Origin: Escherichia coli
Lineage (GTDB): Bacteria > Pseudomonadota > Gammaproteobacteria > Enterobacterales > Enterobacteriaceae
Assembly: GCF_003334315.1 (NCBI RefSeq)
Contig: NZ_QOWR01000021.1
Direction: 5' to 3' (one strand)
DNA: 64,000 nt
Positions 48,165 to 49,787 of the stretch are shown one piece after another. The translations under genes and the position numbers were made by a program. The notes under the pieces were generated by a model. That model did no database searches and had not been told where the DNA came from. It saw nothing but the letters and a program-made list of their open reading frames with translations. Position 1 is the stretch's first letter, and each line of letters opens with the position of its first letter.

Positions 48165-49787
48165 ATGAATACTCTCCCTGAACATTCATGTGACGTGTTG
48201 ATTATCGGTAGCGGCGCAGCCGGACTTTCACTGGCGCTACGCCTGGCTGACCAGCATCAGGTCATCGTTCTAAGTAAAGGCCCGGTAACGGAAGGTTCAA
48301 CATTTTATGCCCAGGGCGGTATTGCCGCCGTGTTTGATGAAACTGACAGCATTGACTCGCATGTGGAAGACACATTGATTGCCGGGGCTGGTATTTGCGA
48401 TCGCCATGCAGTTGAATTTGTCGCCAGCAATGCACGATCCTGTGTGCAATGGCTAATCGACCAGGGGGTGTTATTTGATACCCACATTCAGCCGAATGGC
48501 GAAGAAAGCTACCATCTGACCCGTGAAGGTGGACATAGTCACCGTCGTATTCTTCATGCCGCCGACGCAACTGGTAGAGAAGTAGAAACCACGCTGGTGA
48601 GCAAGGCGCTGAACCATCCGAATATTCGCGTGCTGGAGCGCAGCAACGCGGTTGATCTGATTATTTCTGACAAAATTGGCCTGCCGGGCACGCGACGGGT
48701 TGTTGGCGCGTGGGTATGGAACCGAAATAAAGAAAAGGTGGAAACCTGCCACGCAAAAGCGGTGGTGCTGGCAACCGGCGGTGCGTCGAAGGTTTATCAG
48801 TACACCACCAATCCGGATATTTCTTCTGGCGATGGCATTGCTATGGCGTGGCGCGCAGGCTGCCGGGTTGCCAATCTCGAATTTAATCAGTTCCACCCTA
48901 CCGCGCTGTATCACCCCCAGGCACGCAATTTCCTGTTAACGGAAGCACTGCGCGGCGAAGGCGCTTATCTCAAGCGCCCGGATGGCACGCGTTTTATGCC
49001 CGATTTTGATGTGCGCGGCGAACTGGCCCCGCGCGATATTGTCGCCCGCGCCATTGACCATGAAATGAAACGCCTCGGCGCGGATTGTATGTTCCTTGAT
49101 ATCAGCCATAAGCCCGCTGATTTTATTCGCCAGCATTTCCCGATGATTTATGAAAAATTGCTCGGGCTGGGGATTGATCTCACACAAGAACCGGTACCGA
49201 TTGTGCCTGCTGCACACTATACCTGCGGTGGTGTAATGGTTGATGATCATGGGCGTACGGACGTCGAGGGCTTGTATGCCATTGGCGAGGTGAGTTATAC
49301 CGGCTTACACGGCGCTAACCGCATGGCCTCGAATTCATTGCTGGAGTGTCTGGTCTATGGCTGGTCGGCGGCGGAAGATATCACCAGACGTATGCCTTAT
49401 GCCCACGACATCAGTACGTTACCGCCGTGGGATGAAAGCCGCGTTGAGAACCCTGACGAACGGGTAGTAATTCAGCATAACTGGCACGAGCTACGTCTGT
49501 TTATGTGGGATTACGTTGGCATTGTGCGCACAACGAAGCGCCTGGAACGCGCCCTGCGGCGGATAACCATGCTCCAACAAGAAATAGACGAATATTACGC
49601 CCATTTCCGCGTCTCAAATAATTTGCTGGAGCTGCGTAATCTGGTACAGGTTGCCGAGTTGATTGTTCGCTGTGCGATGATGCGCAAGGAGAGTCGTGGC
49701 CTGCATTTTACGCTGGATTACCCGGAACTGCTCACGCATTCCGGTCCATCGATCCTTTCTCCCGGCAATCATTACATAAACAGATAA
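48165..49787 (+). CDS. nadB: L-aspartate oxidase
   Basis: 540 aa; FAD motif [11 protein letters not shown]. Confidence 0.96.

Follow-up and report, generated by a model that had tools for sequence, protein, structure and literature searches.

Tail-to-tail overlaps of four convergent gene pairs in a 64-kb stretch of the Escherichia coli chromosome

Four pairs of convergent genes share nucleotides at their stop codons in the stretch of E. coli DNA analyzed here (64,000 nucleotides, hereafter the window). These are probably ordinary tail-to-tail overlaps of a compact enterobacterial chromosome, passively held and not selected for cross-regulation. The window is a piece of a K-12-type E. coli chromosome, extending from the iscR-trmJ spacer to just past kgtP, and corresponds to MG1655 2,662,256-2,726,255: MG1655 coordinates are obtained by adding 2,662,255 to window coordinates, and the gene ends coincide with those of MG1655. 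Over 3 kb around the nadB/trmN junction, several E. coli chromosomes match the window with 100% identity, and this stretch was found in 5,426 of 5,426 complete E. coli genomes.

Stop-codon overlaps in the window

The overlaps were checked with six-frame ORF lists, RefSeq annotation (100%-identical strain, MG1655) and direct reading of the sequence. The preliminary description had reported a 16-nt overlap for nadB(+)/yfiC(-), a 9-nt overlap for csiE/hcaT and 4-nt overlaps for mltF/tadA and yfiM/kgtP; each of them is borne out by the ORF lists, the RefSeq ends and the sequence (Table 1). All four are convergent overlapping gene pairs: neighbouring genes face each other on opposite strands and have the last nucleotides of their coding sequences in common. 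The genes are conserved, and orthologues with the same ends were found in 79 (nadB/trmN), 7 (yfiM/kgtP) and 3 (mltF/tadA) other species or genera. An annotation artefact, in which stop codons or genes would be mis-called and no real overlap would exist, can be practically dismissed and was rejected: the stop codons are unambiguous, all eight genes encode conserved proteins whose orthologues end at the same positions, and the TrmN C-terminus is invariant up to its stop. Nothing was found in support of it, the ORFs and the annotation differing in start codons only.

The window contains 11 convergent pairs in all. The seven that do not overlap are separated by gaps of 44 to 208 nt.

Table 1. Coordinates of genes, overlaps, RNA features and convergent gaps (window positions)
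Feature	Position	Strand	Source or remark
csiE CDS	3180..4460	+	ORF list, annotation
hcaT CDS	4452..5591	-	ORF list, annotation
csiE/hcaT overlap, 9 nt TCAGCATGA	4452..4460	.	read directly
csiE primary 3' end, Term-seq	4507 (MG1655 2666762)	+	PMC7815308, supplementary file 1
mltF CDS	33546..35102	+	ORF list, annotation
tadA CDS	35099..35602	-	ORF list, annotation
mltF/tadA overlap, 4 nt TTAA	35099..35102	.	read directly
Palindromic GC-rich hairpin near mltF/tadA junction, without U-tract	35053-83		hairpin scan
Rho (bicyclomycin-sensitive) termination region antisense in mltF	34809 (MG1655 2697064)	-	PMC7815308
nadB CDS (L-aspartate oxidase)	48165..49787	+	stop TAA 49785-49787; ORF list, annotation
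trmN (yfiC, trmN6) CDS	49772..50509	-	stop TAA 49772-49774
nadB/trmN overlap, 16 nt TTACATAAACAGATAA	49772..49787	.	read directly
10-bp perfect hairpin (GCATTCTCCC/GGGAGAATGC) inside trmN	49862..49889	.	without U-tract
yfiM CDS	61873..62196	+	ORF list, annotation
kgtP CDS	62193..63491	-	ORF list, annotation
yfiM/kgtP overlap, 4 nt CTAA	62193..62196	.	read directly
p19-captured, RNase III-cut 21-nt dsRNA 'kgtP yfiM'	62174..62194	.	PMC7373196, Table S3
GC-rich hairpin, kgtP 3' UTR, inside yfiM CDS (proximal)	62149..62166	-	hairpin scan
Second hairpin (AGCCGCUCCC-UUCG-GGGCGGCU) inside yfiM CDS (distal)	62098..62119	-	hairpin scan
Rho termination region antisense in pssA	61487 (MG1655 2723742)	-	Rho score 19, PMC7815308
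yphA/yphB, convergent, gap 47 nt			RefSeq annotation
yphH/glyA, convergent, gap 197 nt			RefSeq annotation
hmp/glnB, convergent, gap 44 nt			RefSeq annotation
yfhL/shoB, convergent, gap 193 nt			RefSeq annotation
srmB/yfiE, convergent, gap 208 nt			RefSeq annotation
eamB/grcA, convergent, gap 55 nt			RefSeq annotation
ung/yfiF, convergent, gap 47 nt			RefSeq annotation

The number of convergent overlaps in the E. coli genome has been given as 58 (Lillo & Krakauer 2007, PMC2174442) and as 75 (Huvet & Stumpf 2014, PMC4161906). From these counts 0.8-1.03 overlaps are expected per 64 kb, the Poisson probability of at least four being 0.009-0.021, and about 0.7-1.5 windows with at least four overlaps are expected per genome. 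The four overlaps thus form a mild local cluster, chosen post hoc and of only nominal significance; it is unremarkable because about one such window per genome is expected by chance. CTAA and TTAA, found here at yfiM/kgtP and mltF/tadA, are two of the four tetramers which dominate prokaryotic convergent overlaps (PMC2174442). Lillo & Krakauer, who examined the 58 E. coli cases, already stated that the terminators of convergent overlaps must lie within coding sequence (PMC2174442).

Transcript ends and RNA structures at the junctions

Overlapping coding sequences leave no spacer between them and the 3' ends of both transcripts therefore lie inside the opposing gene. The reasoning of the preliminary description, that there is no room for an intergenic terminator and that transcripts have to end inside the partner, is right by logic, and published 3' ends or Rho regions agree with it for three of the four pairs. 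The ends do not coincide with the stop codons: those of csiE and kgtP lie 47-82 nt beyond them, and the Rho region of tadA about 290 nt beyond. In the data of Adams et al. (2021, PMC7815308) the csiE 3' end is located 47 nt after its stop, antisense in hcaT. Two Term-seq 3' ends on the kgtP strand, 62142 and 62111, are located 51 and 82 nt beyond the kgtP stop, antisense in yfiM, and are followed by the Rho region in pssA, about 700 nt beyond the same stop (PMC7815308). The Rho region attributed to tadA read-through, about 290 nt beyond the tadA stop, has a Rho score of 9.6 (p 2e-18; PMC7815308). The Term-seq tables of the same work list no 3' ends for mltF, and its Term-seq and Rho tables list neither 3' ends nor Rho regions for nadB or trmN; SMRT-Cappable-seq supplements likewise contain no entries for these genes. 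A Rho-dependent region is also present inside mltF on its own strand, at 34850 (+) (MG1655 2697105; score 3.2, p 7e-5), about 250 nt ahead of the mltF stop; if transcripts ended early at this site, fewer of them would run on into tadA, an essential gene.

Strong hairpins were found at all four junctions by the hairpin scan; they are without U-tracts and do not qualify as intrinsic terminators. Intrinsic terminators inside the partner genes at nadB/trmN were rejected: a consensus scan around this junction gave only two weak 5-bp matches (2 against 0.8 +/- 0.8 expected), which is at chance level. Stretches with more C than G follow all eight stops; for example, C amounts to 0.31-0.36 and G to 0.17-0.21 at 117-270 nt beyond the nadB stop. 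This composition would be compatible with Rho loading, and we infer that Rho probably terminates the nadB and trmN transcripts as well.

The two kgtP-strand ends relate differently to the two hairpins located there. The end at 62142 falls 7 nt after the proximal hairpin. The end at 62111 (-) falls within the distal one, in the ascending arm and not after the stem, which is not where a terminator or a protective stem would be expected to leave an end; processing or pausing could account for it. The duplex annotated 'kgtP yfiM' maps uniquely to 62174-62194 and adjoins the CTAA overlap. It comes from Table S3 of Huang et al. (2020, PMC7373196), defined as perfectly paired sense/antisense RNase III products; among the matches listed from that work, none corresponds to RNase III-cut dsRNA at the other three overlaps. 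The gene of RNase III, the enzyme by which sense/antisense duplexes arising at the four junctions would be cut, is located in the same window (rnc, about 41.1-41.8 kb, minus strand, rnc-era-recO operon), a mere coincidence of position.

The hairpin inside trmN begins 75 nt beyond the nadB stop and encodes TrmN residues AFSPQAGEC; the 37-nt stretch which holds it (49856-49892) folds at about -20 kcal/mol. Its conservation was analyzed by aligning 81 sequences and counting pairs in two registers against shuffles. In the E. coli register 61.6% of cells are paired, equal to shuffles, and in a 6-bp core register 86.0% are paired against 84.4% in shuffles. Pairing in the core register comes almost wholly from invariant codon positions, and where both partners are four-fold-degenerate sites, which is so for a single pair, only 37 of 80 sequences can form it. 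A conserved RNA element was therefore rejected, covariation being unconvincing and pairing close to shuffle level. As pairing hardly departs from shuffles and comes mostly from invariant codons, the stem, as judged from the alignment, follows from the protein sequence, and it is only in E. coli proper that all its pairs form. In E. coli alone it may be a candidate pause site or 3'-protective stem for the nadB mRNA.

The preliminary description had gone further and taken the arrangement to imply mutual antisense interference. Such interference may occur, but it does not follow from the anatomy, for antisense Rho regions of this kind are also seen at convergent pairs of the window that do not overlap: from yphA into yphB, glyA into yphH, glnB into hmp and yfhL into shoB, and in both directions at srmB/yfiE and ung/yfiF (PMC7815308). 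Antisense regions are the largest class of Rho regions in E. coli (51.5%; Adams et al. 2021, PMC7815308), and Conway et al. observed that the transcripts of 276 of 370 convergent operons (75%) run into one another, the overlap averaging 286 nt. Because non-overlapping pairs also show antisense Rho regions and operon read-through, overlap of coding sequences is no special condition for antisense overlap; antisense interference in E. coli neither requires it nor is assured by it. The density of dsRNA is moreover 37.9-fold lower at convergent 3' overlaps than at divergent 5' overlaps (Huang et al. 2020, PMC7373196).

Conservation of the overlaps

A TrmN scan of a species-representative genome collection provided 80 Enterobacteriaceae loci, with TrmN identities of 71-96%. 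In every scorable locus nadB is convergent with trmN, and 76 of 79 loci share an overlap of 16 nt; of the other three, two have 8 nt and one has 12 nt. The position of the stops is fixed and their identity varies: trmN ends with TAA, TGA or TAG, nadB only with TAA or TAG. The nadB stop consists of the complements of three trmN bases, the last of a Phe codon and the first two of the following Tyr codon, and TTY-TAY read on the opposite strand, in the nadB frame, always gives TAA or TAG. The last five TrmN residues (FYLFM) are 99-100% invariant among 77 species. Upstream of the overlap, the C-terminal tail of NadB shows up to 12 residue states per position. Since the conserved Phe-Tyr codons of TrmN always give TAA or TAG, the NadB reading frame is closed at that place. 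The 8- or 12-nt exceptions are found in Escherichia sp. MOD1-EC7003 (L007), Escherichia sp. ESNIH1 (L034) and Enterobacter sp. kpr-6 (L036). In these three the NadB tail has a shifted frame or another length, and an earlier TAA is used within the complement of the last TrmN codons. The NadB tail therefore tolerates change. From these comparisons the nadB/trmN overlap looks passive, a frozen by-product of coding constraint, and its conservation does not speak for selection of the overlap itself.

The 4-nt overlap of yfiM and kgtP is present in six of seven cases (Salmonella, Citrobacter, Enterobacter kobei, Cronobacter, Buttiauxella and Enterobacter soli), and Shimwellia has a 4-nt gap instead. 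The distal kgtP hairpin, which encodes S-R-P-x-G-S-G-W, is kept in seven of eight genera, some synonymous sites included (eight sequences), and the proximal one is variable among the eight genera. Retention of the distal hairpin hints at possible selection on an embedded RNA element. At two Enterobacter loci a 13-residue ORF with a PssL Pfam match (PF22869) was seen upstream of, and overlapping, the pssA start (L085, 1075-1116; L089, 1088-1129).

For mltF/tadA the 4-nt overlap is present in Enterobacter kobei; a spacer takes its place in Salmonella (50 nt) and Kosakonia (41 nt). In Salmonella enterica serovar Derby (L090, 2553-2602) the 50-nt tadA-mltF spacer resembles a REP-type palindromic insert (GCCGGATAAG...CCATCCGATAAG), and for either of the two strands the folding energy of the surrounding 66 nt (L090, 2545-2610) is -16 to -22 kcal/mol. 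With gaps at mltF/tadA in Salmonella and Kosakonia and at yfiM/kgtP in Shimwellia, overlap per se is not preserved in the genomes compared. As a counterpoint, the overlaps of nadB with trmN and of yfiM with kgtP are long-conserved, and the arrangement itself could have been under selection.

Origin of the overlaps and relation to known systems

Taken as ordinary tail-to-tail overlaps, the four junctions are probably to be explained as follows. Stop codons would drift into the neighbouring gene, giving rise to an overlap, which the coding constraints of the neighbour would then hold in place with no selection for cross-regulation. In the absence of a spacer, each mRNA has to run on as untranslated RNA antisense to its partner, and this extension is ended tens to hundreds of nucleotides further on, probably mainly by Rho. 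Trimming of the 3' ends would stop, or transcription pause, at GC-rich hairpins lying by chance in the partner coding sequence. Transcription of both genes would give RNAs that are complementary over a short length, and RNase III would cut a little of this duplex. At the low transcription rates of these genes the effect on expression would probably be small.

Two other explanations bear on the same data. It is rather unlikely that the overlaps are functional excludons, maintained for mutual repression via RNA polymerase collision and/or RNase III cleavage of duplexes. The presence of all four pairs in the published E. coli 'excludome' (ExcludonFinder, PMC12288877) would favour this explanation, but such listing comes almost by construction for expressed pairs with overlapping coding sequences and adds no evidence of interference. 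Excludon pairs as a class do show higher synteny and less single-cell co-expression than other neighbours; the claim of mutual exclusion is nevertheless made at the class level and from sparse single-cell data, and p19 validation is described as 'not feasible' for convergent excludons (PMC12288877). The RNase III duplex at the yfiM/kgtP junction also counts in its favour, to be set against a dsRNA density which at convergent overlaps is some 38-fold below that of divergent ones (PMC7373196). Conservation across genera of the nadB/trmN and yfiM/kgtP overlaps also speaks for maintenance, but for nadB/trmN it is accounted for by the TrmN coding constraint, and Salmonella and Kosakonia do without an overlap of mltF and tadA. 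Lastly, the partners are without evidently opposed functions: NAD synthesis and a tRNA methylase in one pair, a murein transglycosylase and an essential tRNA deaminase in another. A stronger version, in which the conserved overlaps would be kept as reciprocal switches and hairpins such as the one inside trmN (49862-49889) and the distal one of kgtP inside yfiM (62098-62119) would be selected pause or termination sites and RNase III entry sites, so that, for example, NAD synthesis would be coupled with tRNA modification, or the uptake of alpha-ketoglutarate with the pssA-yfiM operon, is highly improbable.

We also regard as very unlikely a collision-driven bidirectional termination, in which junction hairpins would pause polymerases and head-on and trailing collisions would release both transcripts independently of Rho (Ju et al. 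2019; Wang et al. 2022, bioRxiv 2022.10.23.513370). The GC-rich hairpins of Table 1, which are without U-tracts and lie 14-75 nt beyond several of the stops, are the kind of structure it calls for, and Term-seq ends are found at or near both kgtP hairpins; however, the Term-seq tables list no plus-strand 3' end near these hairpins for yfiM, mltF or nadB, and the trmN hairpin is not conserved as a stem outside E. coli. The model moreover needs both partners to be transcribed efficiently, whereas expression of these genes is weak, and the read-through of tadA and kgtP has Rho-sensitive regions.

Overlaps of this kind, and the inference of termination inside the partner gene, are already known: both have been in print since at least 2007, and the four pairs are named in the 2025 excludon map. 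What the window adds is a clean worked example of overlap freezing, nadB/trmN, where the Phe-Tyr codons of TrmN create the NadB stop on the other strand. If reciprocal regulation were shown at one of the junctions, it would provide a functional case for a class resting mostly on transcript-overlap maps.

The closest known systems are the tail-to-tail overlaps of prokaryotes (PMC2174442, PMC4161906). The pairs described here are likewise short, restricted to the stop codon region and attributable to stop movement, their terminators must lie inside coding sequence, and the canonical CTAA and TTAA recur in two of them. Nothing essential differs, apart from a density in the window of about four times the average and from the unusual clarity with which, at nadB/trmN, one stop is seen to be fixed by conserved codons of the partner. 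With convergent excludons (concept of Sesto et al. 2013; PMC12288877) they have in common opposite-strand neighbours, overlapping transcripts in published data and one RNase III-cut dsRNA; Table 1 of the ExcludonFinder study (NAR 2025, PMC12288877) lists 4 of 4 overlapping pairs of the window and 0 of 7 non-overlapping convergent pairs. Classical excludons differ in that they combine long antisense UTRs spanning the neighbour with functionally opposed genes, reciprocal expression being their defining trait. Overlapping bidirectional terminators (Ju et al. 2019; bioRxiv 2022.10.23.513370) resemble the present junctions by a shared hairpin region without U-tract, but they are intergenic and have paired 3' ends on both strands, whereas here the hairpins lie inside coding sequence and only kgtP-strand ends are mapped at hairpins. 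Rho-suppressed antisense read-through (Peters et al. 2012; PMC7815308) also involves C-rich untranslated RNA terminated inside the opposing gene; it differs in that no Rho region is reported for nadB, trmN, csiE and hcaT, possibly owing to low expression, and the likeness is most direct for tadA and kgtP, for which such termination has been mapped.
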